NCBI GenBank assembly: GCA_044349155.1
Contig: JBIKRQ010000029.1
Location: 1 to 29,465, forward strand
Source of the DNA: Myxococcota bacterium
GTDB lineage: Bacteria; Myxococcota; UBA727; VGSZ01
Reading direction: 5' to 3'
DNA length: 29,465 nt
The first letter of the stretch is position 1. Each line of letters begins with the position of its first letter. Position numbers and translations under genes: made by a program. Positions 2,499 to 23,394 of this stretch are shown piece by piece. A model generated the notes under the pieces. It was not told where the DNA came from and ran no database searches. It saw only the letters and a list, made by a program, of their open reading frames with translations.

Positions 2499-4892
2499 CT
2501 ACTCGGCGTCGGCGCGCTTCAGCAGCGGAAAAGCGGGAGAAGGCGCAAAATCGAGAAACTTCTTCGCGGTTTCGAGAAGCCCGCGCCCTTCAACCGCCGC
2601 AAGCTCGCCGAAGTTTTCCGACAGCGAACTCAACAACTGCGCATCGCCCAACCGCTGCAACGACGCCGACAACTCCGGCGACACCGCCTGCGCCTGCCGC
2701 ACGCGGGCATCGGTGTGCGCCAACAAGAACGCGACCTCGAGGCGTTGGCGTTGCTCGAGCTCGTCGATCTCGACGGCGGCTTCCTTCGCCTTCGTCGCCA
2801 ACCGCAGCGCGCGCAGCGCACCGTCGGCCTGCACCGCCGACAACTCCTGCTCCGCCTGCATCGCCTGCACCGCGCGCTTGTGCTGCACACGACGACGCTC
2901 GAGCTCCCACGTGCCTTCTTCGAGCTCGGTCTCCAACTGCAGCGCCAACAGCTTCGTTTGCTGGTCCTGCTGCAACAACTGACGTGCCACTTCTTCGAGG
3001 CGTTGCTTGTCGCTCAGACTCGCCGTGGTCGAGGCCACGGTGACCGCGGCGCGCACGGTTTCCAGCTGTGAAGCATCGAGCAGATCGCGGACCCGCTCGT
3101 CGACGATTTCGCATTCGTGCACTTCGACATCGAACACGCACAGGCCGTTTTCGGCGAAGCGCAGACCTTTGCGTTCACCATCAGTGCGCTCGCCGAGCAC
3201 TGCATCGCGCACCAGGTCGACCACCTCGGCACGCAGCTGACGAATCGGCGTTTTTCGTGCGCGCCCCTTCACGATCGAGCCGGCGTGTTCGCACAACAGC
3301 TTCACGTAGTTGTCGACGACGAACCAGCGATCGGCATCGCCGTCGAACGACACGCGAAACGTCACGTGCACGCGCGCTTCCACCAGATCGGCCGACACCA
3401 CCTCGATGATGTCGCTGACCTGATTGCCCTGCACCTTCAGGTACACCGTGGGCAACAAGCGCTGGGTGGTCTTGGGCTTTCCCGTCGACAACGTGAGCGC
3501 TTCCAGGGTTTCGTCAAACGCGAGCAGCACCGTGTGCGGCCCCTGCACCACGCGCCGTTGTCCTCGACGGTCTTTGACGCACACGGCGTAGCCCGACCAC
3601 ACATCCACGCTCACCGCGCCGTCATACTTGCTGTCGAGCAGCAGCGTGGCGGGCTTGGTGAACGAGCGCGAGAAGGTATCGACACCGTCGTGGCTCGTGG
3701 CTTTTGTCGTCGTCGGCTGGACCCCCGACGCTGGGGCCACGACTGTTTTGGGCACCGTGCCGTTTCTGAGCGCGCGGTTGTGTTGCAGCGCTTCGTCGTT
3801 GCCCGGATACAGCAGCACGCTTTCGCGATCGGACAACGCGCGGCGCACCATGACCTCGTGGCGCGGGTCGGCGAGCAGCATGCGCGGGCCCACCACCAGG
3901 CGCACATCGCCGCTGGTTTTGTCGAGGACATAGCGGCCCTCGCCGGCGGGAATGGCCACCGCGTGGTGCTGCTCGGCACCGTTGCCCGGGCGGACCATCG
4001 CGTGCTCTTCGCGCGGGAAGTACAGGCGCGTTTGCGTGCCGGTGACGAAGAGCTCGTCGCCTTCGGCATGAGCAACGCCGTCGTCGTCGACGTACGGGGC
4101 GATCACCTTGATGTGCACCCCGGTGGTGGGGCTGAGCTCCAACGCGCGAAAAGCGCGCCGGCCGTTCACCTCGACGAAGCGCTCGTCGGGGGCGGGGAAC
4201 ACCACGGCCTCGCCGCGCACCATGCGCTTCTTGCCGTTTTCCTTGGCGAGCACGCAGTACTCGAGGCGCTGCAGGGTGACCGCATCACGCACGAAGCGCC
4301 CGTGCTCGTCGGCGACCACCTCCACACCATTGACGGGCATGTAGAAGCCAGCGCGATCGCCCTGCACCACAAACCGCTGGCCCACCTCAAACGTGAAGTC
4401 ATCGGCCACGACGTCGACAGCAAGGGCCAACGCGGCGTCCTTGTTCGCCAACGCTGCGTCGTAGACCTGCACGACCACGTACTGCGACGACGCCAGCCGG
4501 TGGCCCTCGACGACGCGCGCCATCTGCCCCGGCCACAGCGCAAAGCTCGTGGGCCCACGCACCACCACCTTCTTGCCGACGTGCAACTCCGCCAGCCCCG
4601 AGGCGACACCGACGCGTGGATGGCCGCCGTCCTGGGCGGGGTTCTTCAACACGAGGTACCAGTTCTCTGGTGCGGTCGCGAAGAGCTGAATCGCCGTGGA
4701 GAGTTCCATCGCGTGCACGAAGCGCCTGGCCTCGTCGTCGAAGATCACGGGTTGGTCGGTTTGCGCGAGCGACGTTTTGTTGGGGCCGACGTAGCAGTTG
4801 ATGTGGCCCTTGGTCGTGTCGAGCACCCAGGCGTATTCGTTGGGCGCGAGCACGAGTTCACGTTCGCGCGGGAGGCGGCGTTGCTCTTCCAT
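2499..4892 (-). CDS. mvp: Major vault protein (MVP) homologue: MVP repeat domains, SPFH/band-7-like shoulder, long coiled-coil cap helix (797 aa).
   Basis: Translation aligns by eye with eukaryotic MVP. MEEQRRLPRERELVLAPNEYAWVLDTTKGHINCYVGPNKT matches the MVP N-terminus (..YIHVLDQN..VEVGPKTY..). GEGRYVLDKTSGDVRLVVGPRMLLADPRHE matches human [28 protein letters not shown]. Repeated G[DE]E[WL]..G..Y.P units are present. The shoulder segment ..IVKGRARKTPIRQLRAEVVDLVRDAVLGERTDG..CVFDVEVHECEIVDERVRDLL.. is followed by an E/Q/L/A/R-rich cap helix. Start is at the internal Met (MEEQ..) with GAGG 7 nt upstream. The upstream 39 codons of the track ORF (MGQRARSRCRW..) look non-coding. Confidence 0.85.
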   Translation of the reverse strand: MEEQRRLPRERELVLAPNEYAWVLDTTKGHINCYVGPNKTSLAQTDQPVIFDDEARRFVHAMELSTAIQLFATAPENWYLVLKNPAQDGGHPRVGVASGLAELHVGKKVVVRGPTSFALWPGQMARVVEGHRLASSQYVVVQVYDAALANKDAALALAVDVVADDFTFEVGQRFVVQGDRAGFYMPVNGVEVVADEHGRFVRDAVTLQRLEYCVLAKENGKKRMVRGEAVVFPAPDERFVEVNGRRAFRALELSPTTGVHIKVIAPYVDDDGVAHAEGDELFVTGTQTRLYFPREEHAMVRPGNGAEQHHAVAIPAGEGRYVLDKTSGDVRLVVGPRMLLADPRHEVMVRRALSDRESVLLYPGNDEALQHNRALRNGTVPKTVVAPASGVQPTTTKATSHDGVDTFSRSFTKPATLLLDSKYDGAVSVDVWSGYAVCVKDRRGQRRVVQGPHTVLLAFDETLEALTLSTGKPKTTQRLLPTVYLKVQGNQVSDIIEVVSADLVEARVHVTFRVSFDGDADRWFVVDNYVKLLCEHAGSIVKGRARKTPIRQLRAEVVDLVRDAVLGERTDGERKGLRFAENGLCVFDVEVHECEIVDERVRDLLDASQLETVRAAVTVASTTASLSDKQRLEEVARQLLQQDQQTKLLALQLETELEEGTWELERRRVQHKRAVQAMQAEQELSAVQADGALRALRLATKAKEAAVEIDELEQRQRLEVAFLLAHTDARVRQAQAVSPELSASLQRLGDAQLLSSLSENFGELAAVEGRGLLETAKKFLDFAPSPAFPLLKRADAE

Positions 4893-5034
4893 GGTGGACC
4901 TCGGTGTGTGTTCGCCGACGTCAAAGCAGCCGCTGTGCCAACGGAGCTTGCGCATCACGACGCGCACACGCGCACCCCACCTGCATCGTGATCGAGCGCG
5001 TTGCCCCACGCCTGCACCGCGATGGTGCAGCGAG

Positions 5035-5550: not shown

Positions 5551-8401
5551 TCAGTCGTAGGCGGGAACGGTGCCGCCGAGCGGTGACTCGACCCAGGCCT
5601 TCTTGCCGAGCGGCTCCGCACCACGGTGCTCGCGCTGGGCGCCAACGACGTAGTCGAGGCCGCGTTGGGCTTCGGCAATCAGCGCGTCGTCGGCCGACGG
5701 GTGATCGATGAAGGCCTGCAACACGTCGATGGCGTAGGCCGCGCGCTGCGGCTTCTCGTTGCCCAGCGCCCACAAGAACGAAGCACCGTCGTTCAACATC
5801 GTCGTCAACTGCTCAGCAGTCCACGTCGGGTTGTTGATGGCGTGGACGTTGGCCTGGTGCTCGAAGCGCAGCTTGCTGCCCGTACGGTTGTCGAGCATGT
5901 GCTGCTTGAAGCCCTCGGGGCAGCGTGGGTGTGCAAACAAGATCTCGCCGAGCTGTCGCGACACGAGATCGCGCTCGTACGTTGTGCCCGTCGGCATCGT
6001 CTTGTGCCCGCGGGCGGCCTCGTCGACGGTGGGCTCGCGCACACAGGTGGTAAACGCCCACTTGCCGTCGGGACGCTTGTCGACGCCCCAGATGCTTGCA
6101 GGTGGGACTTCGTCGATGCGTGAAGCGTTGATGCCGGTGTAGGCGCGCGTGCACCAGTCAACGAGGCGGTCTTCTTGATCGCCGCGCACGTCTTCGTTTT
6201 TCATCAAGCGGGCGACGTGGGCGAGGATGCCGAGGTCGAGCACCTTGTCGAGGGCGGCGTCGGAAATCTCCTTCGGCTGCGCGAGTGCCTCGAGCAGGAT
6301 CGGGTTCATCGGCTCCTTCTCGAGGAAGGTGTCGATGAGGGCTTCGGTGACGGCTGGCGGGGTCGCCGGCGACTTCGCAATCGCCAACCACGCGGCCTTG
6401 CTGCCAAAGAAGCTCAAGTCGCCGACGCGCAACTCGATGTCGGACGACGCCGCGCGCGACTGCGTGAGGCCTTCCATCTGCGCCTGCAACTCAAACTGCT
6501 GACCAGCGTCGAGCTCGACGAGACCCGCAGCTTTCGTGCGCGAGCGCACGGCTTTTTCCGCACCCAACAACATCAGCGCCATCGTGTGGTCGATGAGCTC
6601 AGGGGCGATCGAATTCACGTCCTGGAAGTTTGCGGGCAAGCCATCGGCCACGGCGGTGACGATGCGGTTGTCTTTCGTCCAGTAGTGCCACGTCTCCTGC
6701 TCGTTGACCTTGGCCGCAAGGATACGGCGCATCACGCCGTCGTCGCCGCGGGTGAGGTCAGCGAGGCCCAGCGTGTCGATCTCGACGCGCTTGCTGGAAG
6801 CACTCGCCACAAACACCGGCGAGCTCATCGCGAGGAAGTCCTTCATGTCGATGCTGCGATGACCGCTGCAGCCGACAACGAGGAACTTCTTGTTGAGCGC
6901 ATCGCCCTTGTCGGTGAGCACCGTGTAGCCAAGGCCTTCGAGTTCCTTCTTGCGCGCGGGCGTGACGTACGGATCGAAGAAGGTGACGCGCGCGCCATCG
7001 CCCTTGAAGCTGTCGGCGACACCGAGGCCGACTTTGCCGCCGCCAACGATGAGCACTTCTTTGCGCGTGGGCGTGGTGGCCACTTCGTCGAGCACGCGGC
7101 GCACACACTGCACCACCGCATCACCGACCTGGGCACTCTCGAAGCGCTTGCCGTAGCTGCCAGCCACGTTGGCGATCGCGAACGTGGGCTTCGGATCGAT
7201 CTGCGAAATCTCGGTGAGGCCGCGCGTGGTCTGCTCGACGACGCAGAACAGGTGCGCGTGCTCTTTGTACTTCGTCGCGATGTACTTGCTGGCGTAGCCA
7301 CCGTCGTCGAGCACGAGGATGGGCTGGCCGTTTGCTTGATGACGCTCAAAGGCGCGATCGACCGCGGCGCACACGTGCTGCCACATGCCGTCGATGTCGC
7401 CGCGCTCGGGCACGGTGACCTTCAGGCCCATGCCGCGCTCGAGCGAGAGCTTCACCGCGGGGTTCTTTTGGTACGGCACGCCGACGTACTCGGCGTTGTC
7501 CATGTTCATGCCGCCACGCGCGAGCTCGGCGCACAACGGCACCGCCTGCCCCAGCATGTGCTGCACCATGACGACGTTGTGGTTCTTGAACGGCTTGCTC
7601 GACTCGAGGCGCGTGCCCACCGAGTTCGACAGCGGCAGCGTGAGCGGGACTTCGCTGATGCTTTGCAGGGCCGCATCGAGCTTCTGCGTCCAGACGTCGG
7701 CTTCGGTGGGCAGCGAGGTCCAATCGTCGTCGACGACCTTGCGCTGCGGCGCCGTCTGCCACTGCGGCATGAAGTCGTAGACCTTCTGCAACGTCGCGAT
7801 GAAGGCACCATCGAGGAAGGGTGCGGCCTTGGCACCAAGCAGGTTTGAAGCCTTGAAGCTGCGCGCCACGTCGTCGAGCGACATCCCCGGCGAGTCGATG
7901 TTGCGCATCCAGCGCGTGAGCTGGGCCGCGAGCAGCCAGTTCGGCTCGTTGCCCATGCCCACTTTGAAGGGCGCGCCAGGGTTCACCGCCGCGGGCGCGC
8001 CGTGCAGGCCCGCGGCGCGCAGAAACTCCGACTCCGACAGCTGCGACACGTGCTTCGGGTACGCCTTCGAAAACGCCGTCTTCATGGGGTTGTGCGCACC
8101 GAACTGCGGGCTGGCCACGCTTGGTGAGGTCACCAACGACTTCATGACCTCCTGCGGCGGCAGTTCGAGTGTGGCCGGGGCAAGGACCGCTGCGAGCAGC
8201 GGTTTTGCCGTGGTGCTCAGCTTGATGTCGGGCACCTGGCGGGCGACGGCGTCGAAGGAGAAGCGATCGACGGGGCGAGCCGGCCGAGGACTCCGTCGTG
8301 CTGGTCGACTCGGTGGCCTTCGCTGCTGCCTTCGCAGCGGCCGCTTCGGCACTGCGGCGGAAGCGTTCTGCATCGGCAGGGCTCTGAAGTCGGATCGCCA
8401 T
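5551..8401 (-). CDS. Large (~950 aa) protein with a complete S-adenosyl-L-homocysteine hydrolase (AdoHcyase)-like fold embedded between ~270-aa N- and ~280-aa C-terminal extensions (paralogue 1). The frame is interrupted by a +1 nt frameshift near 8272-8275.
   Basis: KPFKNHNVVMVQHMLGQAVPLCAEL matches AdoHcyase [44 protein letters not shown] matches NMILDDGGDLTNLIHTKY. VVEQTTRGLTEI matches ISEETTTGVHNL. The Rossmann segment VLIVGGGKVGLGVADSFKGDGARVTFFDP matches [53 protein letters not shown] matches NIFVTTTGCIDIIL..HF.QMK. The plausible N-terminus MAIRLQSPADAERFRRSAEAAAAKAAAK..SAGSP (ATG 8401, frame of ORF 7346..8410) joins ..VDRFSFDAVARQVPDIK.. (frame of ORF 5551..8508) only if one G is removed from the G4 run at 8272-8275. 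The uninterrupted frame 5551..8508 begins with ~85 junk-like codons. Confidence 0.6.
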
Positions 8402-8523
8402 GGTGAACAAATAGCAGCCACGACGTCGATTTGGCTCGTCGCCGCCGGCCAGATCCCCGCCAGGCTGTTTCGAGAACGCTTCAGAGCTTTCTGCCGATAT
8501 ATCAACAACTTAGCGTGAAACCA

Positions 8524-9783
8524 TCAGTCGCACGTGACGTAGAGCGGCTCGCTCGGAAACGGGCAGTCGGCGCCGTAGACCTCCAGGCCGAAGGTGTCGA
8601 CGGTGCAATCGCTCACGTCGCTTGTGCGGCAATCGTAGGCGAAGCCCCACGTGGGCAGCTCGCGGCTGCGGTTCTCGCCGACACCGCTGGTGCCAAACAA
8701 CTCGGAACACCACAGCTCTTCGGGGTGTGACGAGATGCTGCCGGTGCACACCTGGTGGTAGGCGCCGTCGACTTCGACCTCGAGGAAACCGTCGCGCGCG
8801 TTTTCGCCCTCGACGAGCCGCCCCGCCCCCAACGCGAGGCAGACGTAGCCGTGCAAGCCCGGTTCGATTTCGGCGTTGTAGCAGGTGCCAGCACCCTCGG
8901 GTGACGTGCAGCTCTCGTCCTCTTGCGCCGAGTCGCACGAGCAACTGCCCGAGTAGCACTGCTGATCGGCACCACACTGCCGACCACACGCGCCGCAGTT
9001 GTCTTCGTCTTCGCCGAAGTCGACGCACGTATCGCCGCAGCGATCGAACTCGTGCGCGGAGGTTGAGACGTTGTCGGCGCACAAGCACGTGGGCTCGATC
9101 GAGTCGCGCGTGATCGGGTCTTCGTCGACGCAACGCAACTGTGACGGGCACGCAACATCGCAGCGGCCGCAGTGATCGTCGTCGACAAAGCTGTCGTCAA
9201 CGCAAACGTCACCGCAGCGCACCTCGTTGCACACACCAGCACACGCGGCGGGTCCCTCGCACGTCAACGTGACGGTGAGGTCTTGCAGGGTTTCGTGGCC
9301 CGCTTGATCGAAGAAGCGCGCGCGCAACGGACGCGACGCGCTCGCCGCGAAGTCGATGGCGCGGGTGGTGTTGACCTCGTCCCAGCCAAGGCGAAGCTCG
9401 TACGCACCCTCGGCAGCGGAGGTTTGAAATGCGCCGTACGTGGCGTTGGTGACGGGGTCGAGCAGCACGCCGCCGATCAGGTCGTCGATTCCATCGGGGT
9501 CGGTGACGACGGCAGAGATCACGATGGTCGTCGACGGCGTGAACGTGGTGGTGTTGGCCGACAACGTCAAAATCGTGGGGCACCCGGCATCGAGACACGC
9601 GCCAGGCGGCGGCACATTTTCGCCTTCGCCTTCGCCGCTTTCGCCTTCGCCTTCATTGCCGTCGTCGTCGTCGTCGTCGTTGTTGGATGCGGGACGTCGC
9701 CCCGTTGGCTCGTCTTCGGTCGCCGGCGCACACGACACCACACACGAGATCAGCACAAGGCCAGGCAGGACACGCATTCTCAA
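8524..9783 (-). CDS. Secreted lipoprotein: lipobox, poly-Asp/(Gly-Glu) acidic linker, Cys-rich CG.C..C repeats, C-terminal SRCR-like domain.
   Basis: MRMRVLPGLVLISCVVSC (signal peptide plus L-I-S-C / V-V-S-C lipobox), then NNDDDDDDGNEGEGESGEGEGE. Multiple ..CGRCDVACPSQLRC.. and ..CGACGRQCGADQQCYSGSC.. motifs follow. The terminal ~100 aa RLVEGENARDGFLEVEVDGAYHQVCTGS..EELWCSELFGTSG..WGFAYDCRTSDVSDCTVDTFGLEVYGADCPFPSEPLYVTCD fits the SRCR pattern (RLV.G...G.VEV...G.WG.VC...ak.vC..LG...W.ddv.C.G.E..L.dC....G...C.h.EDagV.C). Confidence 0.7.
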   Translation of the reverse strand: MRMRVLPGLVLISCVVSCAPATEDEPTGRRPASNNDDDDDDGNEGEGESGEGEGENVPPPGACLDAGCPTILTLSANTTTFTPSTTIVISAVVTDPDGIDDLIGGVLLDPVTNATYGAFQTSAAEGAYELRLGWDEVNTTRAIDFAASASRPLRARFFDQAGHETLQDLTVTLTCEGPAACAGVCNEVRCGDVCVDDSFVDDDHCGRCDVACPSQLRCVDEDPITRDSIEPTCLCADNVSTSAHEFDRCGDTCVDFGEDEDNCGACGRQCGADQQCYSGSCSCDSAQEDESCTSPEGAGTCYNAEIEPGLHGYVCLALGAGRLVEGENARDGFLEVEVDGAYHQVCTGSISSHPEELWCSELFGTSGVGENRSRELPTWGFAYDCRTSDVSDCTVDTFGLEVYGADCPFPSEPLYVTCD

Positions 9784-9876: not shown

Positions 9877-12594
9877 ATGTTGAACTCCAACCTTGCGCTC
9901 ACGTCGACAGCACGGAAGTCTGTTGTCGTGACCAAGGCCTCTGCCGACTCTGTGCAGCCTGTCGACACCGGCGGTCAAACGCTGGTGGCGAAGTCGCGGC
10001 CCACCACCGAGGCGCCCAACCTCGACGGCGAAGCGGTGCGCACGATCATCGAGCTCGAAGCCGCGCGCCCCACGTTGTCAGCGCAGCCGACGTTCACCGC
10101 ACGCCCCACCATCACGGTGCGGCCCACGTTCACCGCGCGCTCAACGCGATCGCTTACCCCCGAGGTCGATGGCTCCGCCGAGCTGCAAAACGCTGGCACC
10201 ATCGTCGAGCTCGCAGCGGGGGCGATCACGTCGGTGGTCGCGTCGTCGGAAGGCATCGCTGCTCCTGCCGCGCGAGCCACGTCGCAGGTCCGCTACGACC
10301 TCGTTGGCGAGATCGGACGCGGCGGTGGTGGCGATGTCTTCGAGGTCAAAGACAACGACCTCAAGCGCCACGTTGCGCTCAAGCGCTTGCGCAAAGAGCA
10401 CATTGATCGCGGGCTGCTCGCGTTGTTTCTGCAAGAGGCACAGCTCACCGCACAGCTCGAACACCCGAACATTGTCCCCGTGCATGAGCTGGGTTGCACC
10501 GCCACGGGCGAGCCATTTTTCACGATGAAGCGTGTGATCGGCCAGACGTTGCACGACGTGCTGGTGGGCGTTGCTCGTCGAGAACCGGCGTTTGTGGCGC
10601 GCTTTTCACGCACGCGGTTGCTCGTGGTGTTTTTGGAAATCACCCGCGGTGTGGCGCACGCGCATGCCCGTGGTGTGGTGCACTGCGATCTCAAGCCCGC
10701 CAACATTCTCATCGGCAACCACGGCGAAACCCTCGTCGCGGATTGGGGGTTGGCCACGCCCGATCGCCTGACGCCCGAGCCCATTGTTGGTGGCGCGCAG
10801 CTCTCGACCGTTGAGTGGCCCGGCGAACTCATCGACATGGGCGTGAGCGGCACGTTGCATGCGTTCGCGCCGGAGCAGGCACAGCATCTGCCCTTCGATC
10901 GCCGCATCGACGTCTACGCCCTCGGCGTCATCCTGTATGAGCTGCTCACCGGCGAGCGCCCGTTTGCGTGGAAGAACCTCGCTGAAGCAGCAGCGCCGCG
11001 ATCGTTGCCCGTGCCGCCGCGCGTGCGTGCGCCGCACAAAGACATCTCCGACGAGCTCGAGGCCATCTGCCTCAAGTGCTTGCAGCCCGATCCCAACAAC
11101 CGCTACGGCGGCGCCGGAGCCCTCAGCCTGGCGATGGAGAACGCGCTCACGGGCTCACGTCGTCGACAACAGGCGCAGCACGTGACCAGCGAAGCGCAGG
11201 TGTATCTCGCCACCATGCGTACGCTGCAGGCGCAGCAACAGCAGGTGCAGCACGAGATCGCCGCCCACCTCGACGTGATCAAACCCTGGGACGACGAAGC
11301 GGTGAAGGCACCCTTGTGGGCGGCCGAGCAGCGGCAGCAGCAGTTGGAGTTCGCCGTCGACGAAGCGCTCGCGTCCACCCTCGACTGCTTCAATCAAGCC
11401 CTCGGCCTCGACCCCGGCTTCGTTGCTGCCGAAGACGCGTTGGCCGACCTGCACCTCGAGCTGTTTCTCGAAGCCGAAGCGCACGGCCGTCATCGGGATC
11501 AACAGTTCCACCGCCGCCTCGTCGAGCGCCACCACCGTGGTCGTCATGCCGCGGTGTTGGCGGGGCGCGGCATCGTCACGCTGCGGCCGCGCATCAACGG
11601 TGTCGACGCCGTGGAGGCGCGCATCAGCGGTGTGGTGCTCGTTGAAGAGGGCAAGCGCATCGTTGCGGGCGAGGCATTGCTGTTGCCTGATGGCGTCGTG
11701 CACGAGTTGTCGGTGCCGATGGGCAGTGCGCTGTTCACCATCACGCCACCAGCACACGAGCCGCCATTGGCCACCACGACGGTGCACGTCTACGTCGGCC
11801 GCTCCGGGCGCGTTGACCTCGACGTGAACCTGGTACCGCAAGCCGTACTCGTTGGTGGACACGCCGGCGGTGTGCACATTCCGGCGGGGCCGTTTCTCGC
11901 CGGTGGCGATGCCGAAGCACAAAACGCGGGCCCGCGTCGCGAGGTGGTGCTGGCCGACTTTGTCATCGCCAAAACGCCGGTCACGTGTGCTGAGTACCTG
12001 GTGTTCTTGAACGATGTGGCGCGCACCGATCTGGCCGCCGCACGTCGTCACGTGCCGCGCACCAAGCCCGAGGGCGGCGCGTTGTGGGAGCCCGACGAAC
12101 ACGGCGTGTACGCGCTGCCGACGGCCGACGCCGACGGCAATCCTGTCATCGCCGACGCTCCCGTGATGGGCGTGAGCTTCTTCGACGCCGAGGCCTACTG
12201 CGCGTGGAAGGCCCGCCTCGACGGCGTGCCCTGGCGTTTGCCGAGCGAAGACGAGTGGGAGAAAGCCGCGCGTGGCGTCGACGGCCGCTTCTTTCCGTGG
12301 GGCAACGGCTTCGATCCCACGTTCTGCAAAATGGCCACGTCACGTCCGGGGCGCCCACAACCCGAAGCGGTGATGAGCTACCCCGTCGACGTCAGCGTCT
12401 ATGGCGTCGCCGACACTGCTGGCGGCATTCGCGAGTGGTGCAACAGCTACTACGACGCCACCAAAGAGACGCGCACGCTGCGGGGCGGGGCCTGGTACTT
12501 CAACCCGAGCTTCTGCCGCACAGCGTTTCGTCACGGGTACCTGCCACACATCGTGTTCACGAACTTCGGCTTTCGCCTCGCCCGCGACGTGTAG
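9877..12594 (+). CDS. Eukaryotic-like Ser/Thr protein kinase fused to a C-terminal FGE-sulfatase (SUMF1/EgtB-type) domain.
   Basis: Kinase motifs: G-loop IGRGGGGDVFEV, VALKRL (beta3 Lys), catalytic loop HCDLKPANIL, DWGLA (DFG-equivalent), APEQ, DVYALGVILYELLTG. The C-terminal region ..ADAEAQNAGPRREV.., ..RGGAWYFNPSFCRTAFRHGYLPHIVFTNFGFRLARD matches the FGE-sulfatase signature (RGGSW...R.A.R......GFR). The ~130-aa N-terminal low-complexity leader precedes the kinase domain. Confidence 0.85.
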   Translation: MLNSNLALTSTARKSVVVTKASADSVQPVDTGGQTLVAKSRPTTEAPNLDGEAVRTIIELEAARPTLSAQPTFTARPTITVRPTFTARSTRSLTPEVDGSAELQNAGTIVELAAGAITSVVASSEGIAAPAARATSQVRYDLVGEIGRGGGGDVFEVKDNDLKRHVALKRLRKEHIDRGLLALFLQEAQLTAQLEHPNIVPVHELGCTATGEPFFTMKRVIGQTLHDVLVGVARREPAFVARFSRTRLLVVFLEITRGVAHAHARGVVHCDLKPANILIGNHGETLVADWGLATPDRLTPEPIVGGAQLSTVEWPGELIDMGVSGTLHAFAPEQAQHLPFDRRIDVYALGVILYELLTGERPFAWKNLAEAAAPRSLPVPPRVRAPHKDISDELEAICLKCLQPDPNNRYGGAGALSLAMENALTGSRRRQQAQHVTSEAQVYLATMRTLQAQQQQVQHEIAAHLDVIKPWDDEAVKAPLWAAEQRQQQLEFAVDEALASTLDCFNQALGLDPGFVAAEDALADLHLELFLEAEAHGRHRDQQFHRRLVERHHRGRHAAVLAGRGIVTLRPRINGVDAVEARISGVVLVEEGKRIVAGEALLLPDGVVHELSVPMGSALFTITPPAHEPPLATTTVHVYVGRSGRVDLDVNLVPQAVLVGGHAGGVHIPAGPFLAGGDAEAQNAGPRREVVLADFVIAKTPVTCAEYLVFLNDVARTDLAAARRHVPRTKPEGGALWEPDEHGVYALPTADADGNPVIADAPVMGVSFFDAEAYCAWKARLDGVPWRLPSEDEWEKAARGVDGRFFPWGNGFDPTFCKMATSRPGRPQPEAVMSYPVDVSVYGVADTAGGIREWCNSYYDATKETRTLRGGAWYFNPSFCRTAFRHGYLPHIVFTNFGFRLARDV

Positions 12595-12608: not shown

Positions 12609-13808
12609 CTACGGCGCAACACACTCGTCGACAGAGCGCGGCCGACACTGCTCATCAGCGCGGCAGTCCGCAGCAACCGTGCAGACCCGGCCGGCTTCAC
12701 CGTCGAGGTTGACGCATCGATCGCGCACGACGCCGTCACAGAGGTCGCTCGCGCACTCGGCGTTCTCGGCGCACCGCTGGCCATCTGGTCGACGACACGT
12801 GCCGTTTGCGCAGAGATCGCCAAAGAGATCCTGCGCGCAGTCCGTGTCTGCGGTGCACGCGTCGCCAATGCTGCCGACCTCGACGCAAACACCTTCACGG
12901 CACTCTTGGGCCACGCCACCAAACAGCCCGAGCAGTGCGCAACGAACGGAATCGGTGCACGTCGCAGCGCACGTGCCGTCGAAGCAGGAATTGAGGCCAC
13001 ATTCGGCGTCGCTGTCGCAGCCTCCATTCAGGGCCTGTGACACACACACGCCGTCGAAGCAGCCGGCGAACACCGATGCGCAGTCGGTGTCGGCGGTGCA
13101 GCTGTCGCCAAGCGAACGCGTCTGGCACTCCCCGTCGTTGCACACCAGATCGCTGGCGCAGTCGTCGTCGTCGCTGCACAAAGCACCGATGTCGCCCGAT
13201 GCGCAGGCATTCGCGACGCAGTGGGTGCTGCTGCAATCGTTGTCGACGACGCAATCAGCGCCATCAGCACCTGAGCCGCAGCGCTCTTCGACGCAAAAGC
13301 CGCTGTCGCAACCGTCGTCATCGGTGCACGCGCCGCCGAGTGCGCTCGAGGCCACCAGGCAACGGTCACCGTCGCTCACGCCGCTGGTGCAGATGTAGAC
13401 GTCGCCTTGAAATGTGGCGCACCCGGTGTCGCGCGAGCACGGTTGGCCCGGCGAAGCACGACACGCGCCGTCGTCGCCGCAGGAATCGCTCGCGCAGTGG
13501 GTATCGGCGTTGCATTCCTCGCCATCGAATCGCGTGTGCTCGACGTAGCAGGTGGGCACAGTGCGTCCGTCGAAGGCTGCGCAAAACAGGTTGGCGCCGC
13601 AGGCGTCTGTGCCAAAGGCGAGGCAGCACGATTCACTGGGGCCGCGGCTGCGCTGAGCAAGGGCGCATGCATCTTCATCGTCGACGTCCACCTCGTCGTC
13701 GTCCACCTCATCGACGCCACTGTCTGGACCAGCGGTGGTGGGCGCTGGACACGACACAACGAGCAACGCGAGCGACATGGCAAACAGCACGGCTGATGAG
13801 CGGGGCAT
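12609..13808 (-). CDS. Secreted lipoprotein with acidic linker and ~10 tandem Cys-rich repeats (C..D.DC.S..C....C type).
   Basis: MPRSSAVLFAMSLALLVVSC (lipobox VVSC), then DEVDDDEVDVDDED. Repeated ..GEECNADTHCASDSCGDDGACR.., ..GGACTDDDGCDSGFCVEERC.., ..GALCSDDDDCASDLVCNDGECQ.., ..GDSCTADTDCASVFAGCFDGVCV.. follow. It is convergent with the kinase gene and immediately downstream (same strand) of SAHH-fold paralogue 2. Confidence 0.7.
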   Translation of the reverse strand: MPRSSAVLFAMSLALLVVSCPAPTTAGPDSGVDEVDDDEVDVDDEDACALAQRSRGPSESCCLAFGTDACGANLFCAAFDGRTVPTCYVEHTRFDGEECNADTHCASDSCGDDGACRASPGQPCSRDTGCATFQGDVYICTSGVSDGDRCLVASSALGGACTDDDGCDSGFCVEERCGSGADGADCVVDNDCSSTHCVANACASGDIGALCSDDDDCASDLVCNDGECQTRSLGDSCTADTDCASVFAGCFDGVCVSQALNGGCDSDAECGLNSCFDGTCAATCTDSVRCALLGLFGGVAQECREGVCVEVGSIGDACTADTDCAQDLFGDLCANGTCRRPDGQRCAENAECASDLCDGVVRDRCVNLDGEAGRVCTVAADCRADEQCRPRSVDECVAP

Positions 13809-13885: not shown

Positions 13886-16800
13886 TCACCCCAACATGAG
13901 CGGCGCATGCCGGAGCGACTCAAGCTCCACGGCATCTCCCGGGAGCGTGTAGTCGATGACGACGTGGAAGGGGCGCTCCGGATCGGGTCGATGAACGCCA
14001 CGAAACACCGCGTCGTGCGGCAGGCGCACCGCGCGAGCATCGCCACCTGGGACCAACGGCGTGAGCACCAGTGCGCCGTCTGCCGCCCGCCCGACGACCA
14101 GCGGCGTCTCGCTTGCCGGCAGCAGCTGCACGGCTTCCACTTCGACGACGGAGCGCGGCAGTCGGATCTGGGCAAAGTGGCGCCCGACGGTGGTGTCGTG
14201 CACGTCGTGGACAAAGAGGCGCGCTGGTGTGCGCTGCACCTCGACAACGACCTGCTCCGCAGCGCTGACGTACAGCGCTGGCCCTGTGCCCTTGCGTGTG
14301 AGCGTCTCGAGTTGCGCCGTGCCGGGAAACGAACGCTGAAGGGTGGAGCCCACCTCGACGACGATCGATGTCGCAGCGCCGACATCGCGCACAGCCACGC
14401 GGCGATCGAAAGGTTGCGCAGGTGTTGCGGTGAACGCGCTCGTGGCGCGCTCGATCATGGAAAACCACTTGCGTCCAGTACTCGCATCAACGCCGTCGAC
14501 GTACCACGCGTTTGCTTCGGGCTCGGTGAGTGCCACCAGCGACCGGGGCACCGATGGCAACGTCACCGTCAGCGATGCAGCGCCCACGACGTCGCCGCGG
14601 CTCGTGTCGACAGCGCGCACCTGGCCGTCGTCGTCGGCGAAGATGTACAAGCCGGGGCGCTCGCCGACCTGGTTCGGCGGCGGGCACACGCCACGAGGCA
14701 AGCGTGCAAGGTAGGCCATCCACTCGTCGTGCCGTGCGGCGCCAACGACGAGGTCGGGACGCTGTGCAGCTCCGCGCGGCGACGCAGCTGTGCGATCCAG
14801 AACGGGCGTCTGCGGTCCACCGCGGGCGTCCCACGTGTTCTCGGCGAGCGTGCCGAGTGCAGGATCGAGCTCGACGAGACCAGGTGCTGAGGCCGACACA
14901 TCTTGCACGACGGCGGCGAACAACAACGCGCGCGTCAGCGCGATGTTCTCGGCCGTGAGGTTCTCGTATCCGTCGCCGTGAAAGTTGGCGGGACGGCCTC
15001 GATTCAGAATGGTGATGCCCTCGCTGCGGTGGCTGTCGATCTGCACCGCATCGAATTCAATCGCTGCCGACGACCCGCTCATCAACGCACCATCGAAGTC
15101 CTTGAGCATGTCGCCGCGCAGCGAGGTGTGGCCGGTGCACGACAAGATGACGTCGACGTGGTCGCTGATGCGATCGACGGAGTCGTGGGCGACAAAGCCT
15201 GCGGTGGTGGCACGCGCACGTGCTTCGGCCTTGGTGTCGACGAGCTCGACGTCGAAGCCTGCTGCACGCAAGTGCTTCGCCGTGTTGATTCCAATGGTGC
15301 CAGCGCTCACGACGCCGACACGCGCCTGGTCCGACAAGCGGCTGGCCTGCGTTGACTCCAACAGCAGCGCCTCGGCGAGCGCCCAGCCAACAACGTCGCC
15401 TTCCCGCTGTTTTGGCGCCGACGAAGCAACAGCAACCGTGCGGTAGGCGATGGGCTGTTTCTTCAACTCGGTCAGGCCGCGCGTGGTCTGCTCAACAGCA
15501 TCGGTGAACGTGGGGTCGAAGAGCTGTTGCAAGGTGGTCGAAGACGCGCCGCTGTCGGGGACCGGCTTTTGTCCGGCGATGATCGTCTGCAACATGCCGC
15601 CGTCGTCGAGCAGCTTCCACCCGTTGGCTGGGGCGACCGCCGTGCGCACGACTTCGTTGAGAAAGCGGTGCACTTCGCCGATGCGGTGTTCCTCAAACCC
15701 ACGGGTGTTGCCGCCCGTATCGCTGCCCACCATCACGTTGACGCCGAGGGTGCGCAGATACGACGCGACGAGGGGATTCGACGCGTACGGTGTTCCAAGG
15801 ATGAACATCTGCGAAGGGTCCATGCCCTTTTCGATCATCGCCTCGATCATCGGCACGATCGTGGGAAACAGATGCTGCACAGCAACAAGGCCGCGGCCCG
15901 CCACGGCGTCGTGGGGCACCCGATCTTTGACGACGTCGAGGACCGCGAGCTGCTTCGGCACAAGCCCACTGTCGCGCACGAGCACATCGATCAGCGGCCG
16001 CGCCGTGTGCGCTGGCATCGACAGGCGCAGCTCTTCGATCACCCGCGAGGCAAACGTGTAGTTCGGGCGCGCAGGCGTACCGAGGGCAGCAGCATCGTTG
16101 AGCGAGCGGGCGATGGCAGTACCGACGGCGCCAAAGTCACGGCAGAATCGCGGCCAGTCGACCTGGTTTGTCGTCGACGAGGGATAGCGGGCGAGCAGTT
16201 GCACCAACGCTGCGGCCACGACAGCCGGATCGGCGTTCGAGGCGCCCTGGCGCACGAGGGGCGAAAGGGCTGCGCCAAGGCTCTGCTGACCACGCCGAAC
16301 CATGAAGCCGCCGACGCCATCGAGCGTGTGGTTCAGCAGGCCGGGCGCACCCGCAAGTTCACGGGCGGCGATCTGCAAGGCGCCACCGGCACCGTAGCCG
16401 AGCACCTCGAGCAATTTCGTCGACGTCACGCGCGTGCTGATGCCATCGGGGAGCGTTACAGCGGCAGCCGCCGACAACGACGCAGCGCCGGTGACGCGCG
16501 CAGCCTTCGCCGCGGTCGGCGCCTCAACCACATCGACGACGACAGCAGGTGTGCAGAGGGCCGCGAGCACGCGGTCGCACTCGCTCGATGGACACAAGCG
16601 GTCGATCTTTTCGCGCAGGGTGAGCTGCTGCTCGACCCAACGGTCCTGTTGTGTTGTCCAATGTCCCGACGTTGGTGGCGTCGGCAGTCGTTGCAACGTG
16701 CCAGCGGAGAACGCCTCCAGCGCATTCTTCAGCGCCTGGCCAACGACAACGCCTTCGGCGCCGAGCTCCTCGAGAACATCAACGGGGACTGGTTTGTTCG

Positions 16801-17143
16801 CATCGAAGTGAACAGCCCGCGCGAGCAACACGGCCAGCAGCGCAGCGCCGTCGCCGACGTTCGGTTCACCAGCAACAGCGGTGCGCGTCCGCAGCGCCAG
16901 ATCGAGTTTGCTCTCGCGGTGCTTGGTAAGCGCGTTGGCGACGAGCGCGCCCACCTCGGGGGCAGCGTCGAGCACGTCGAGCAGCTGGTGCATTGGCGGC
17001 GTGTGGGACAGGCCCCAGGGGCTGCTGGTGGCGCCAACCACCGGCGGGTCGCGGCTCAGGCCAGCACGCAAAATTCTCGCCTGGAAGTCGTTCGACGACG
17101 ACAACCACTGAGCGGGGATCACCTGCGCGCGAATGACGGGCAT
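13886..17143 (-). CDS. Large (~1085 aa) protein with an AdoHcyase-like (SAHH) fold core, paralogue 2 of the 5551..8401 gene.
   Basis: The same motif series as paralogue 1. DRVPHDAVAGRGLVAVQHLFPTIVPMIEAMIEKG (substrate-domain His). LGTPYASNPLVASYLRTLGVNVMV. WKLLDDGGMLQTIIAG (DDGG). AVEQTTRGLTELK. Rossmann ARVGVVSAGTIGINTAKHLRAAGFDVELVDT. VDVILSCTGHTSLRGDMLKDFDGALMSGSSAAIEFD. Start at MPVIRAQVIPAQW (ATG 17143); the 26 upstream codons of the track ORF look non-coding. Confidence 0.7.
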   Translation of the reverse strand: MPVIRAQVIPAQWLSSSNDFQARILRAGLSRDPPVVGATSSPWGLSHTPPMHQLLDVLDAAPEVGALVANALTKHRESKLDLALRTRTAVAGEPNVGDGAALLAVLLARAVHFDANKPVPVDVLEELGAEGVVVGQALKNALEAFSAGTLQRLPTPPTSGHWTTQQDRWVEQQLTLREKIDRLCPSSECDRVLAALCTPAVVVDVVEAPTAAKAARVTGAASLSAAAAVTLPDGISTRVTSTKLLEVLGYGAGGALQIAARELAGAPGLLNHTLDGVGGFMVRRGQQSLGAALSPLVRQGASNADPAVVAAALVQLLARYPSSTTNQVDWPRFCRDFGAVGTAIARSLNDAAALGTPARPNYTFASRVIEELRLSMPAHTARPLIDVLVRDSGLVPKQLAVLDVVKDRVPHDAVAGRGLVAVQHLFPTIVPMIEAMIEKGMDPSQMFILGTPYASNPLVASYLRTLGVNVMVGSDTGGNTRGFEEHRIGEVHRFLNEVVRTAVAPANGWKLLDDGGMLQTIIAGQKPVPDSGASSTTLQQLFDPTFTDAVEQTTRGLTELKKQPIAYRTVAVASSAPKQREGDVVGWALAEALLLESTQASRLSDQARVGVVSAGTIGINTAKHLRAAGFDVELVDTKAEARARATTAGFVAHDSVDRISDHVDVILSCTGHTSLRGDMLKDFDGALMSGSSAAIEFDAVQIDSHRSEGITILNRGRPANFHGDGYENLTAENIALTRALLFAAVVQDVSASAPGLVELDPALGTLAENTWDARGGPQTPVLDRTAASPRGAAQRPDLVVGAARHDEWMAYLARLPRGVCPPPNQVGERPGLYIFADDDGQVRAVDTSRGDVVGAASLTVTLPSVPRSLVALTEPEANAWYVDGVDASTGRKWFSMIERATSAFTATPAQPFDRRVAVRDVGAATSIVVEVGSTLQRSFPGTAQLETLTRKGTGPALYVSAAEQVVVEVQRTPARLFVHDVHDTTVGRHFAQIRLPRSVVEVEAVQLLPASETPLVVGRAADGALVLTPLVPGGDARAVRLPHDAVFRGVHRPDPERPFHVVIDYTLPGDAVELESLRHAPLMLG

Positions 17144-17258
17144 GTCGAGTTCTACTCTGTTCACGCGATGTGGGGGTGACATTTGCGGGGAAACTTCCCG
17201 CCGATCACCCCGTGAGTTCATGGATTTGTCGTGCCGACAACCCCATGAATATCAACAT

Positions 17259-17284: not shown

Positions 17285-17329
17285 ATCCATGATATGCGCG
17301 CCTCTTCAGGCGTGCGACGTTCGCCGACA

Positions 17330-18088
17330 ATGAACAGAGCCGCACTCTGCACGCTCCTCCGCGCGCATCCGATCCTGAAGGATGTCGACGACGTTGGCAT
17401 TGATGCCATCGCTACCGCCGGCATCGTCAAGACCTACTGCGCTGGCGACGTGCTCACGCGCGAAGGCGACAAGGCCTGGGCCTATTGGTTTCTCGTCGTG
17501 GGGCACACCCGGGTGTTTTACACGTCGCCAGAAGGCCTCACCGTCACGGTGAAGCTGTTTGCCGCGCCTGCCGCGTGGGCCGAGATGCAGGTGTTGCACG
17601 ACTGGGTACACACCGAGCACTGCGTCGCCGAAGACGACGTCACGTGTGTGTGTCTGCCGAAGCTGGAGTTCGAGCGCCTCCTCGAGCTCCACCCGCGCTT
17701 CATGAAGAACGTGCTGGTCGATGCTGGCGCGCGCTTTCTTATCACAGCACAGCACGAGCGCGCGCTCGCGTTTCTGAAGGTGCCGCAGCGGCTTGCGTAC
17801 CTGCTGCTGTCGTACGCGCGCCTGCATGGCGAAGACGTCGTCGACGGTGTGTTGATCCGCCACCGCCTGTCGCAGGAAGAACTGGCCAACGGTCTTGGCG
17901 TTGCGCGCAAGAGCGTGGTGCGTGCGTTCACCGACTGGATCGACGCCGGTGTGCTCGAAAAGCGCGGCCTCTACTACGTCATCGTTGACGTGCAGCGTCT
18001 GCGCGAAGCAGCGCCCGACGACGTGCTTGGGATCGACTGGGTTGCTGGTGGCCGCCTCGCCGACGGCATCGGAAGCCGTCGGCGGTAA
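17330..18088 (+). CDS. Crp/Fnr-family transcriptional regulator (cNMP-binding-like beta-barrel plus C-terminal HTH).
   Basis: MNRAALCTLLRAHPILKDVDDVGIDAIATAG..TYCAGDVLTREGDKAWAYWFLVVGHTRVFY..GLTVTVKLF..AWAEMQVL.. (degenerate cNMP-binding barrel; GE replaced by AE, no RxA phosphate-binding motif). Crp-type HTH RLSQEELANGLGVARKSVVRAFTDWIDAGVLEKRG. Start at the internal ATG 17330. Confidence 0.75.
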   Translation: MNRAALCTLLRAHPILKDVDDVGIDAIATAGIVKTYCAGDVLTREGDKAWAYWFLVVGHTRVFYTSPEGLTVTVKLFAAPAAWAEMQVLHDWVHTEHCVAEDDVTCVCLPKLEFERLLELHPRFMKNVLVDAGARFLITAQHERALAFLKVPQRLAYLLLSYARLHGEDVVDGVLIRHRLSQEELANGLGVARKSVVRAFTDWIDAGVLEKRGLYYVIVDVQRLREAAPDDVLGIDWVAGGRLADGIGSRRR

Positions 18089-18105
18089 CGCGATGCTGTT
18101 CGCGT

Positions 18106-19353
18106 TCAGCCCTTGATGCACAGCACCTGTTTGAGCACGTGCACCACGTCGACGAGGTCGGCTTGCGCGGCCATCACGGCGTCGATGTCTTTGTAGGCGC
18201 GCGGGCTTTCGTCGATCACCTCTTTGTCTTTGCGGCACTCGACACCAGCGGTGCGCGCGCGGTGTTCAGCGAGCGTGATCTGCTGCCTGGCCATCGCTCG
18301 CGACATCGTGCGACCTGCACCATGTGAGCACGAGCAGAACGACGCGGGCTCGCCCTTGCCGCGCACGATGTAGCTCTTGTCGCCCATCGAGCCGGGGATG
18401 ATGCCGTAGTCGCCCACGCCCGCGCGCACAGCACCCTTGCGCGTGACGAACACCTCCTCGCCGTAGTGCACCTCGGTGGAGACGTAGTTGTGGTGGCAGT
18501 TGACGACGAGCTCGTCGGCGGAGAACCGCGGAATGCCCTTGTGCTTCTTGAGCGCATTGAGGGCCGCGCGCATCATCAGCGCCCGGTTCTCGCGCGCGAA
18601 ATCCTGCGCCCACTGCACCGCACGGAAGTAGGCGTCGAAGTCGGGCTGCCCGCGCTCGAGCCACGCCAGGTTCTCGTCGGGAATCTCTCGGTTCATGCGG
18701 CGCAGGCGCGCGCGTGCCCGATCGATGAACAGCGTGCCAATCGCATTGCCCACACCGCGCGAGCCCGAGTGCAGCATGACCCACACGCGCTGCTCCTCGT
18801 CGAGACAGACCTCGACAAAGTGGTTGCCCGTACCAAGCGTGCCCAGATGATTGCGGTGGTTCGTCTTCTTCAGCTGCGGTGCATCAGCGCACACCGCATC
18901 GAAGCCATCAGCAAGTGTCGCCCACACGTCGTCGACGTTCTTGGGCACGTTGCCCCACGCACCGCGGTCGCCACTTCGGCCGTTGCCACTTCGGCCGTGG
19001 GGGATCGCGGCCTCCATCGCCGTGCGCAGTTGCACGAGTGAGGTGGGCAGCTGCGACGCCGTCAGCGACGTGCGCACCGCCATCATTCCGCAGCCAATGT
19101 CGACACCGACGGCCGCGGGCACCACCGCGTGTTGCGTGGCCACGACGGAGCCGACGGTGGCCCCCATGCCCCAGTGCACGTCGGGCATGGCGGCGACGTG
19201 GTGAAAGGCAAACGGCAGGCGCGCGGTGTTTTCGAGTTGCGCCCAGGCGCCGTGCTCGACTTCAACGCCGTGGGTCCAGCTCACGATGGGCACCCCGTCG
19301 TCGACGACGCGGGTCAGGGCCTGGGGAGGAAGGTCAAGCAGCGGGGCATTCAT
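18106..19353 (-). CDS. rtcB: RNA-splicing ligase RtcB (3'-phosphate/5'-OH RNA ligase).
   Basis: MNAPLLDL..LPFAFHHVAAMPDVHWGMGATVGSVVATQHAVVPAAVGVDIGCGMMAVRT.., GTLGTGNHFVEV, ..HNYV.., ..SCSHGAGR.. are near-identical to E. coli RtcB signature blocks. Length 415 aa. No rtcA or rtcR is visible nearby. Confidence 0.9.
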   Translation of the reverse strand: MNAPLLDLPPQALTRVVDDGVPIVSWTHGVEVEHGAWAQLENTARLPFAFHHVAAMPDVHWGMGATVGSVVATQHAVVPAAVGVDIGCGMMAVRTSLTASQLPTSLVQLRTAMEAAIPHGRSGNGRSGDRGAWGNVPKNVDDVWATLADGFDAVCADAPQLKKTNHRNHLGTLGTGNHFVEVCLDEEQRVWVMLHSGSRGVGNAIGTLFIDRARARLRRMNREIPDENLAWLERGQPDFDAYFRAVQWAQDFARENRALMMRAALNALKKHKGIPRFSADELVVNCHHNYVSTEVHYGEEVFVTRKGAVRAGVGDYGIIPGSMGDKSYIVRGKGEPASFCSCSHGAGRTMSRAMARQQITLAEHRARTAGVECRKDKEVIDESPRAYKDIDAVMAAQADLVDVVHVLKQVLCIKG

Positions 19354-19441
19354 GGCAGCACACGTCGGAAGCAGAGCAGGAAGAACCAGAAGTGGCCCTG
19401 CCGACGTGTGGCACCGCGCGCTGATTCAACCTGGTTTCACA

Positions 19442-21847: not shown

Positions 21848-23394
21848 GACGACACCCCAACAGCAGTGACAGGAGCAGCGACAACGGCAGGCGCGAGGGG
21901 CCACAGCCGCAACGTGAGCCGCGTGGACATCTCGTCGAGGTACAGGCCCGAAAACAGCCACGGGTGCAGCGTCTGCGCAAACGCGCTGTGCGGAAAGGCG
22001 CGCAGCACTTCAAACACCGCGAGCACCGCGAACAGCACCACACACAACACGATGGCGCCCACGGTGTTGACCACGTCGTCGCCGCGCGGAGCAACACTCA
22101 ACAGCGCGATCTGCGTGAGCACGACGGTGGCAGCGACAACGACCGCGGTGCGCGTCAACAGCGCCACGATGGGAGCGCGACGCGCCGACGGCAGCAGCGG
22201 TGACACGGCGATGGCGACCAACAGCCAACTGCACGCTTGTCGGGCTGTGGCCTCGGTCGCGATGGCGACCACCACCACGGCCACCGCGAGCAGCACCGCG
22301 CCGCCCACGCGAGCGACCGGTGAGACCACAGCGACGGGGGCAAACAGTTGGCGCTGGGTGCGGTCGACGGTCCCCGACGCCGTCAAGAACGCGTGCGCCT
22401 TGTAGAGCGAGTGGGCCACGAGGTGCAGCACCACAAGGTGCCACAGGCCGAGCGCGCACTCGACCAACATGAAGCCCATCTGCGCGATCGTCGACCACGC
22501 CAGAGCCACTTTGACGCTCACGCGCGTCGTCGTCACGAGGGCCGCTATCGCCGTGGTGGGGACGGCGATCAACAGCAGCAACACCTGCGCGCCTGTAGCG
22601 CGATCCAGCAGTGGGGCGGTGCGCAACAACAACAGGCCGCCCATGTTGACCACGCCGGCATGCAGCAGCGCGCTGACGGGTGTGGGTGCTTCCATCACCT
22701 GCGTGAGCCAGCCATGAAACGGCAACTGGGCACACTTCAACGCCGCGGCCACCACGAAGCAGACAGCGGCGAACTGCAGCAGCGGCGGCAGCGTGTCGAG
22801 GGCGGCCACTGACGACGACAACTGCTCGAGATCGCCGCTGCCCGTGCTGCTCACGACCGCAGCCGCGCCGCACGCCAGCACCACGTCGGCCAGGCGCGAC
22901 ACGATGAACTTTTTGCGCGCTGCCACGATGGCCGCGACCCGGTCGGGGAAGAACAACAGCAACCGGTGCAGCGACACGCTCACGCCGATCCAGGCAAGCC
23001 ACAACAACAGCAGATGCCGCGACAACACCAACACCGAAACGCTCGCGAGGGTGAGGGCAAAGGCGCGCGCATACGCCGGAGCACGTGGCTCGTCGCGCAA
23101 CGCGGACTCCGACGCCCGTGCCAGCACTGCAGCGAGGAACGTCACCAGCAGCAGCACCACCACCTGTGGCGCCGTCGTCGAGATCAGCGCTACGGCGCTG
23201 TGGGCGTACAGCGAGAGCACCGCGGTGACGACCGCTGCCACGAGGCTGACCACCGCGGCGCGGCGTGTCGTCGTCAGTGCACTACGGCCGCGGCCCACAG
23301 CGGCTGCACCAACGAAGCACAGGGGCACCGCCAGTGCTGTCAGAGAGAGGAGGAGATCGATCTGCATGGAGGTGTTGTGACGAAAACCGTCCAT
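21844..23394 (-). CDS. dabB: DabB, a NuoL/MrpA-like proton-conducting membrane subunit (PF00361 type) of the DAB pump.
   Basis: Polytopic membrane protein with ..LPFHGWLTQVMEAPTPVSALLHAGVVNMGGLLLLR.. and ..WSTIAQMGFMLVECALG..HLVAHSLYKAHAFL.. typical of complex-I antiporter-like subunits. It lies immediately upstream of and overlapping dabA. The start could alternatively be the second Met (~23366). Confidence 0.85.
   Translation of the reverse strand: MDGFRHNTSMQIDLLLSLTALAVPLCFVGAAAVGRGRSALTTTRRAAVVSLVAAVVTAVLSLYAHSAVALISTTAPQVVVLLLVTFLAAVLARASESALRDEPRAPAYARAFALTLASVSVLVLSRHLLLLWLAWIGVSVSLHRLLLFFPDRVAAIVAARKKFIVSRLADVVLACGAAAVVSSTGSGDLEQLSSSVAALDTLPPLLQFAAVCFVVAAALKCAQLPFHGWLTQVMEAPTPVSALLHAGVVNMGGLLLLRTAPLLDRATGAQVLLLLIAVPTTAIAALVTTTRVSVKVALAWSTIAQMGFMLVECALGLWHLVVLHLVAHSLYKAHAFLTASGTVDRTQRQLFAPVAVVSPVARVGGAVLLAVAVVVVAIATEATARQACSWLLVAIAVSPLLPSARRAPIVALLTRTAVVVAATVVLTQIALLSVAPRGDDVVNTVGAIVLCVVLFAVLAVFEVLRAFPHSAFAQTLHPWLFSGLYLDEMSTRLTLRLWPLAPAVVAAPVTAVGVSS

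Follow-up and report, generated by a model that had tools for sequence, protein, structure and literature searches.

The lipoprotein gene and its surroundings

The window, meaning the whole stretch of DNA analysed here, is a complete metagenomic contig of 29,465 bp whose GC content is uniformly 62–70%. The ORF list of the window contains a minus-strand ORF at 8524..9783 that encodes 419 aa when read from the TTG at 9783. The ATG two codons in, at 9777, is more likely to be the start, because GGGAG lies about 8 nt upstream of it and because the product in public gene calls is 417 aa long. The identical 417-aa protein has been called on four contigs from different metagenomes, and both NCBI and JGI name it only "hypothetical protein". 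Residue numbers throughout are those of the 419-aa frame with the TTG start at 9783. The features of the gene, followed by those of the neighbouring genes, are:

8524..9777, minus strand: complete lipoprotein coding sequence, 417 aa from the ATG (the TTG at 9783 adds two codons)
9730..9777, minus strand: predicted signal peptide and lipobox (MRVLPGLVLISC/VVSC), residues 3-18, where [LVI][ASTVI][GAS]C fits twice
9601..9729, minus strand: low-complexity tether, residues 19-61, with D36-D41, (G/E)n and VPPPG, read from the translation
9256..9600, minus strand: family-defining conserved domain, about residues 62-176, the best-conserved part, with weak fold matches
8836..9255, minus strand: Cys-rich repeats, about residues 177-316, with 22 Cys; Stig1 (PF04885) and, in part, NF041328
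8527..8835, minus strand: C-terminal divergent SRCR domain, residues 317-419, with six Cys in a group-A-like pattern
2499-5009, minus strand: MVP homologue, 836 aa (MVP shoulder, E 1.3e-17; Vault_3 repeat, E 4.4e-10)
5551-8508, minus strand: large protein of 894-985 aa with an AdoHcyase-type NAD-binding core, downstream of the lipoprotein gene
9877-12594, plus strand: Ser/Thr kinase with a C-terminal FGE-sulfatase (SUMF1-like) domain, 905 aa, divergent from the lipoprotein gene
12609-13808, minus strand: second Cys-rich lipoprotein, 399 aa, with lipobox LVVSC, an acidic tether and DUF7107-type repeats
13886-17221, minus strand: 1111-aa protein adjoining the second lipoprotein, a paralogue of the 985-aa protein (25% identity, E 2e-16)
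17294-21961: Crp-family regulator, RtcB RNA ligase (E 1.5e-125) and DabA, an inorganic-carbon transporter subunit (E 1.4e-228)

The Crp, RtcB and DabA genes confirm that the contig is bacterial. The same kinase gene neighbours the lipoprotein gene on the other contigs that carry it. Around the lipoprotein gene we found no promoter or terminator consensus and no conserved operon partner, and the locus of one relative, P0030, has unrelated neighbours. Two pairs, each consisting of a Cys-rich lipoprotein and a giant NAD-binding protein, flank the kinase gene in opposite gene order. The lipoprotein at 12609-13808 was considered as a paralogue of the SRCR lipoprotein and rejected, since the two have no significant similarity (E 0.34). 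According to the original prediction, the locus carries a eukaryote-like theme. The MVP, the Ser/Thr kinase and the SRCR domain are indeed all in the window, but nothing links them functionally. Genomes of Myxococcota are typically rich in kinases and eukaryote-like in their genes, and the theme does not mark a functional unit.

At the end of the signal peptide, the pattern [LVI][ASTVI][GAS]C is matched by two overlapping lipoboxes, LIS-C14 (MRVLPGLVLIS-C) and VVS-C18, and the lipidated residue would be either Cys14 or Cys18. A Cys is aligned at the lipobox position in at least 90% of 34 relatives, most of which have clear lipoboxes (e.g. LSGC, LAAC, LTGC, LIGC). This shared pattern supports the prediction, made from sequence, that the protein is a lipoprotein. 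The tether that follows reads D36-D41, then GNEGEGESGEGEGEN, with VPPPG later on. A D6-(GE)n tether had been described as lying directly after the lipobox Cys; it is present, but it starts 17 residues past Cys18. Nor is it unusual, as had been thought, since similar acidic or Pro-rich linkers recur in relatives. The tether of P0043 resembles that of our protein ("...RRSNDDDDDGNE"), and GEGEGE followed by poly-Pro is found in P0029, P0030, P0031 and P0037. The acidic tether is therefore a family trait and no oddity.

The domain at residues 62-176 has the signature VVTDPDGIDDLIGG...YGAF.TSAAEGAY...RARFFDQAGH and, with a mean column identity of 57%, is the most conserved part of the family alignment. 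Pfam Big_7 matches it weakly (E 0.023-0.028), and a profile search of the PDB gave weak matches to Fn3-like and filamin domains, all at E>0.27. It is probably an Ig/Fn3-like beta sandwich; because the fold matches are weak, we call it probably Ig-like and go no further. The Cys-rich stalk at residues 177-316 is built on the repeat pattern CG.CG..C.....C..G.C.C. Against a gathering threshold of 24.1 bits, Stig1 (PF04885) reaches 26.1 bits in the full-length protein and 31.3 bits when the region is excised. The NCBIfam MXAN_6577-like model NF041328 scores 33.9 bits (E 2.5e-8), which is below its cutoff of 100 bits and covers the model only in part. There are 30 Cys in the protein after the lipobox, an even number, so all of them could be paired.

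SRCR homology of the C-terminal domain

The proposal that the protein ends in an SRCR-like domain is supported by both profile homology and predicted fold. The outcome that would have refuted it, no significant SRCR profile match and a fold unlike SRCR, was seen in neither respect. All of the motifs on which it was based (RLVEGENARDGFLEVEVDGAYHQVC, ELWCSELFG, WGFAYDCRTSDVSDC and ADCPFPSEPLYVTCD) are present in the translation. The last 98 residues contain exactly six Cys (346, 359, 385, 393, 407 and 418), within the expected six to eight, and these align with the conserved Cys columns of SRCR domains. SRCR domains are about 100–110 aa long and fall into group A, with six Cys, and group B, with eight (PMC7043408). 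On its sequence, the domain is classed as group-A-like with three predicted disulfides, because the extra Cys pair that defines group B is absent. If the connectivity of SRCR domains (C2-C7, C3-C8 and C5-C6) is carried over from group A, C346 would pair with C407, C359 with C418 and C385 with C393.

Direct searches with the single sequence gave sub-threshold or borderline results. When the 99-residue domain was excised, PF00530 was its sole Pfam match (E 0.0024), so HMMER does recognise the SRCR profile, but at 18.6 bits the match is below the gathering threshold of 26.1 bits. A Pfam scan of the full-length protein did not report SRCR, and neither SRCR_2 nor Hepsin-SRCR of Pfam matched the protein. 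A word-index homologue search with the C-terminal 139 aa alone returned nothing, and the full-length protein was needed to find relatives. In a phmmer search of all PDB sequences, SRCR3 of neurotrypsin was the only match for the domain (E 0.043). When a two-sequence profile was made by adding the orthologue P0027, which is 75% identical to our protein, all five PDB chains matched at E<1 were SRCR proteins.

An exhaustive phmmer search of 1.84e9 representatives yielded 22 matches at E<=1e-3, a count that includes the protein itself and one artefact. PF00530 was found in 9 of the 10 matches that we scanned, in multiple copies and at the matched positions, down to E 2.9e-10. The named matches come from algae, molluscs and echinoderms (Chlamydomonas, Aureococcus, oyster and sea urchins). 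Whole-sequence E-values against proteins with multiple SRCR domains are inflated by summing over the repeats, as the artefact illustrates. P0002, a 2110-aa Big_12/beta-helix protein, was the top non-self match (E 1.4e-14); we rejected it as a product of repeat summation because BLASTP resolved it into nine identical weak matches of 21 residues, each with E 0.19. When BLASTP aligned the domain with a single SRCR repeat of P0016, the match covered its full length, with five of the six Cys in register and C407 beside a gap.

We also scored the domain against an SRCR HMM built without it. The real sequence reached 20.6 bits, and none of 10,000 shuffled sequences did so; the maxima were 9.6 bits for 5000 full shuffles and 14.4 bits for 5000 shuffles in which the Cys were held fixed. 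The SRCR resemblance is thus far beyond chance. In an hhalign comparison, the profile of our protein and its orthologue aligned over 86 columns (probability 90.1%, E 1.6e-6) with a profile of 19 SRCR domains, 13 eukaryotic and 6 bacterial, from which our protein's own clade had been left out. Motifs other than the Cys also align with SRCR, namely RLV.G, G.LEVEV.G.Y..VC, C.ELFG and YV.C.

The AF2 model of the domain had a pLDDT of 69, which is moderate confidence. When it was submitted to Foldseek, all of the top 50 matches were SRCR-containing chains, so the predicted structure agrees with the SRCR alpha/beta fold and with no other. This result is not independent of the sequence result, because the AF2 alignment contained bona fide SRCR sequences. 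A single-sequence AF2 run on the whole protein was uninformative (pLDDT 35).

A rival explanation would be that the protein ends in a Cys-rich module of a general bacterial kind that continues the Stig1/MXAN_6577-type repeats, its likeness to SRCR being a coincidence of Cys spacing and composition. This would fit the abundance of Cys-rich repeats elsewhere in the protein, an SRCR score that falls short of the Pfam threshold, and the fact that summing over repeats can make E-values spuriously low. However, coincidence of Cys spacing would not account for the gap between the Cys-fixed shuffles and the real score, nor for the alignment of the non-Cys motifs. With P0002 set aside, the database matches of the domain are SRCR, as are the matches of its predicted fold. 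The excised stalk has no SRCR match in Pfam at E<=10. We find this explanation hardly credible. The comparisons argue instead for true homology between the C-terminal domain, which has evolved fast, and the SRCR domains of eukaryotes, and the annotation of the gene is accordingly improved from "hypothetical protein" to lipoprotein with a C-terminal divergent SRCR domain.

SRCR lipoproteins of the Myxococcota

The full-length protein has 99 homologues, and wherever the source is named it is a Myxococcota, "Deltaproteobacteria" or Nannocystaceae MAG. Four of them (P0030, P0031, P0037 and P0073) combine a tether, the conserved domain and a Cys-rich stalk with a terminal SRCR domain that Pfam scores at 52-62 bits. 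When the HMMER filters were switched off, a further four (P0032, P0035, P0040 and P0029) had SRCR scores of 30-41 bits, and four more members, including our protein, had 13-16 bits. The default filters of hmmsearch dropped P0032, P0035, P0040 and P0029 despite the scores that they reach with --max, presumably because the composition-bias filter reacts to their richness in Cys. The number of SRCR domains in bacteria is therefore probably underestimated by routine annotation. On this spectrum of scores and sequences, the SRCR copy of our protein is placed at the fast-evolving end of the family.

All six Cys columns are kept across 12 SRCR domains of the family. A profile of these 12 members matched 31 chains in the PDB, all of them SRCR, and 61 of 61 matches among 5.8e9 proteins carry PF00530. 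In a set of bacterial genomes with one genome per species, 48 loci have the family signature DPDG[IV][DA]D[LV]I. The named lineages are all Myxococcota, and they include Minicystis rosea, Nannocystis radixulma and MAGs of Bradymonadia, Polyangiaceae, Kofleriaceae and Sandaracinaceae. An SRCR or SRCR-like domain is encoded at 5 of the 48 loci, which makes SRCR one of several alternative C-terminal heads on a shared lipoprotein chassis of myxobacteria. Bacterial SRCR domains had been called sparse; they are less sparse than that implies, as several Myxococcota proteins and genomes have them at Pfam level.

The arrangement of the genes and modules varies among relatives. At locus L004, two family lipoprotein genes lie in tandem (5603-7222 and 7363-8394), both with a Pfam-significant SRCR domain, and the tandem has the bacterial housekeeping neighbours BipA, BolA, MsrA and UvrD. 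The relatives that extend past the SRCR domain include L006, L005/P0032 and P0035, as well as L012, L014, L027 and P0040. One kind of extension is a small motif, YY(G/N)..DGCDC.CGA.DPDC, and others are long extra modules that leave the SRCR domain internal.

The distribution of the family bears on a different origin for the domain, namely recent horizontal acquisition from a eukaryote (or a contig that is itself eukaryotic contamination), with mimicry of a host or prey as its use. The nearest non-self matches in the exhaustive search are all eukaryotic, and the MVP homologue and the eukaryote-type kinase in the same window could be taken to point the same way. However, identity to any eukaryotic SRCR domain is about 26-41%, over partial stretches, and the domain belongs to an architecture that is specific to Myxococcota and includes a bacterial lipobox. 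The contig shows the same 62-70% GC throughout and contains RtcB, DabA and Crp genes, which argues against contamination. Bradymonadia and other Myxococcota MAGs are among the several lineages of the phylum that have related SRCR lipoproteins. We consider a recent acquisition very improbable; given the spread of these lipoproteins across lineages, any transfer looks old and would have been followed by diversification within the phylum.

SRCR domains are usually treated as a eukaryotic, mainly metazoan, module of innate immunity and the extracellular matrix, and our literature searches across 7.7 million papers returned nothing relevant on SRCR domains in bacteria or myxobacteria. Here, a recognisable SRCR fold is predicted at the distal end of a lipoprotein architecture that is widespread in the Myxococcota, with divergent copies that standard annotation misses. 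In the relatives, Pfam already detects SRCR domains. The more interesting outcome is the broader, uncharacterised family of myxobacterial SRCR lipoproteins. It offers a workable system in bacteria for studying which ligands the SRCR fold has outside animals, as well as a data point on the origin of the domain.

The cation site and comparison with known systems

SALSA/DMBT1, MARCO and CD6 bind their ligands through a dual cation site (PMC7043408). In SRCR8 of SALSA, the two sites are formed by D1019, D1020 and E1086 and by D1020, D1058, D1059 and N1081, and changing either D1019 or D1020 alone to Ala abolishes ligand binding (PMC7043408). The dual acidic cluster is absent from our protein, which has T347/G348 at the positions of D1019/D1020 and F381/A382 at those of D1058/D1059; in the hhalign register, only D406 (= N1081) and E412 (= E1086) are kept. 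The SALSA reference sequence used for this mapping agrees with all eight of the published residue numbers. The orthologue P0027 also lacks both dyads and has N at the position of E412. The cation motif VCDD...DD..C...(N/D)C...E is kept in P0031, P0037, L014 and L012, and P0030 differs from it only in having DN as the second dyad. The cation site has been kept in some SRCR domains of this one bacterial family and lost in others.

The domain could still be thought of as a canonical, cation-dependent scavenger module of the DMBT1/MARCO kind that binds polyanions via Ca2+/Mg2+, given that paralogues keep VCDD...LDD..C...(N/D)C...E and that D406 and E412 are retained in our protein. We consider this improbable. 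Both dyads are replaced, the loss of a single Asp is enough to abolish binding in SALSA, and the orthologue shares the missing dyads while also having N for E412. Because both Asp dyads are lost, the canonical cation bridge is probably not used by our protein. With its sub-threshold Pfam score and without the acidic cluster, the domain is filed, on its homology and predicted fold, as a divergent member of the SRCR superfamily and not as a canonical scavenger module.

Taken as a whole, the protein is very probably a disulfide-rich lipoprotein tipped with a divergent SRCR domain that has lost the canonical cation site, by which animal SRCR domains bridge anionic ligands. It would be exported by the Sec pathway and then lipidated at the lipobox Cys, and it may be anchored in the outer membrane, exposed at the surface or periplasmic. 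The flexible acidic/Pro tether would keep three modules off the membrane: the beta-rich (probably Ig-like) domain, the Stig1/MXAN_6577-type Cys-rich stalk and the terminal three-disulfide SRCR domain. The most likely role of the last is as a distal, cation-independent recognition or adhesion head, or else as a structural cap like the SRCR-like domains of hepsin, TMPRSS2 and enteropeptidase. Any partner would be bound via a surface other than the canonical Ca2+/Mg2+ cluster.

A more speculative extension, which we rate as possible but rather unlikely, is that these proteins form an indigenous and diversifying family of Myxococcota SRCR surface lipoproteins for recognising prey envelopes, kin or matrix polyanions, with the window's protein as a cation-independent offshoot. 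If that were true, the SRCR module of eukaryotic innate immunity would have a counterpart in prokaryotes, and conceivably its evolutionary source or an ancient exchange partner. Several members keep the exact dual cation-binding site that serves pattern recognition in animal scavenger receptors, and predatory, social bacteria could be using it in this way; the window's protein would have specialised by switching to a cation-independent ligand.

Compared with known group A SRCR domains (PF00530; MARCO, SCARA5, Mac-2BP, neurotrypsin and complement factor I), that of our protein scores below the Pfam cutoff, lacks the Asp dyads and has a short insertion before Cys407. Group A domains are hosted by eukaryotic receptors or secreted glycoproteins, whereas the host here is a bacterial lipoprotein. 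The SRCR-like domains of hepsin, TMPRSS2 and enteropeptidase (PF15494/PF09272) are among its best structural matches, but at an identity of 9-15%, and our protein has no attached protease domain. The MXAN_6577-like and STIG1-like proteins (NF041328, PF04885) resemble it in the central CG.CG..C repeats, which match both models; unlike our protein, those families have neither the Ig-like nor the SRCR module.

The closest parallel is provided by the Cys-rich lipoproteins of other Myxococcota (P0030, P0031, P0037 and P0073, and L012 and L014 of Bradymonadia). Their SRCR domains score 52-62 bits and mostly keep the cation-binding residues, whereas that of our protein scores below the cutoff and keeps only D406 and E412; identity within the SRCR part is 19-30%, and some of these relatives add C-terminal modules. 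The architecture is nevertheless the same as in our protein: a lipobox, an acidic/Pro tether, the DPDGIDDLIGG domain, Stig1-like repeats and a terminal SRCR domain.
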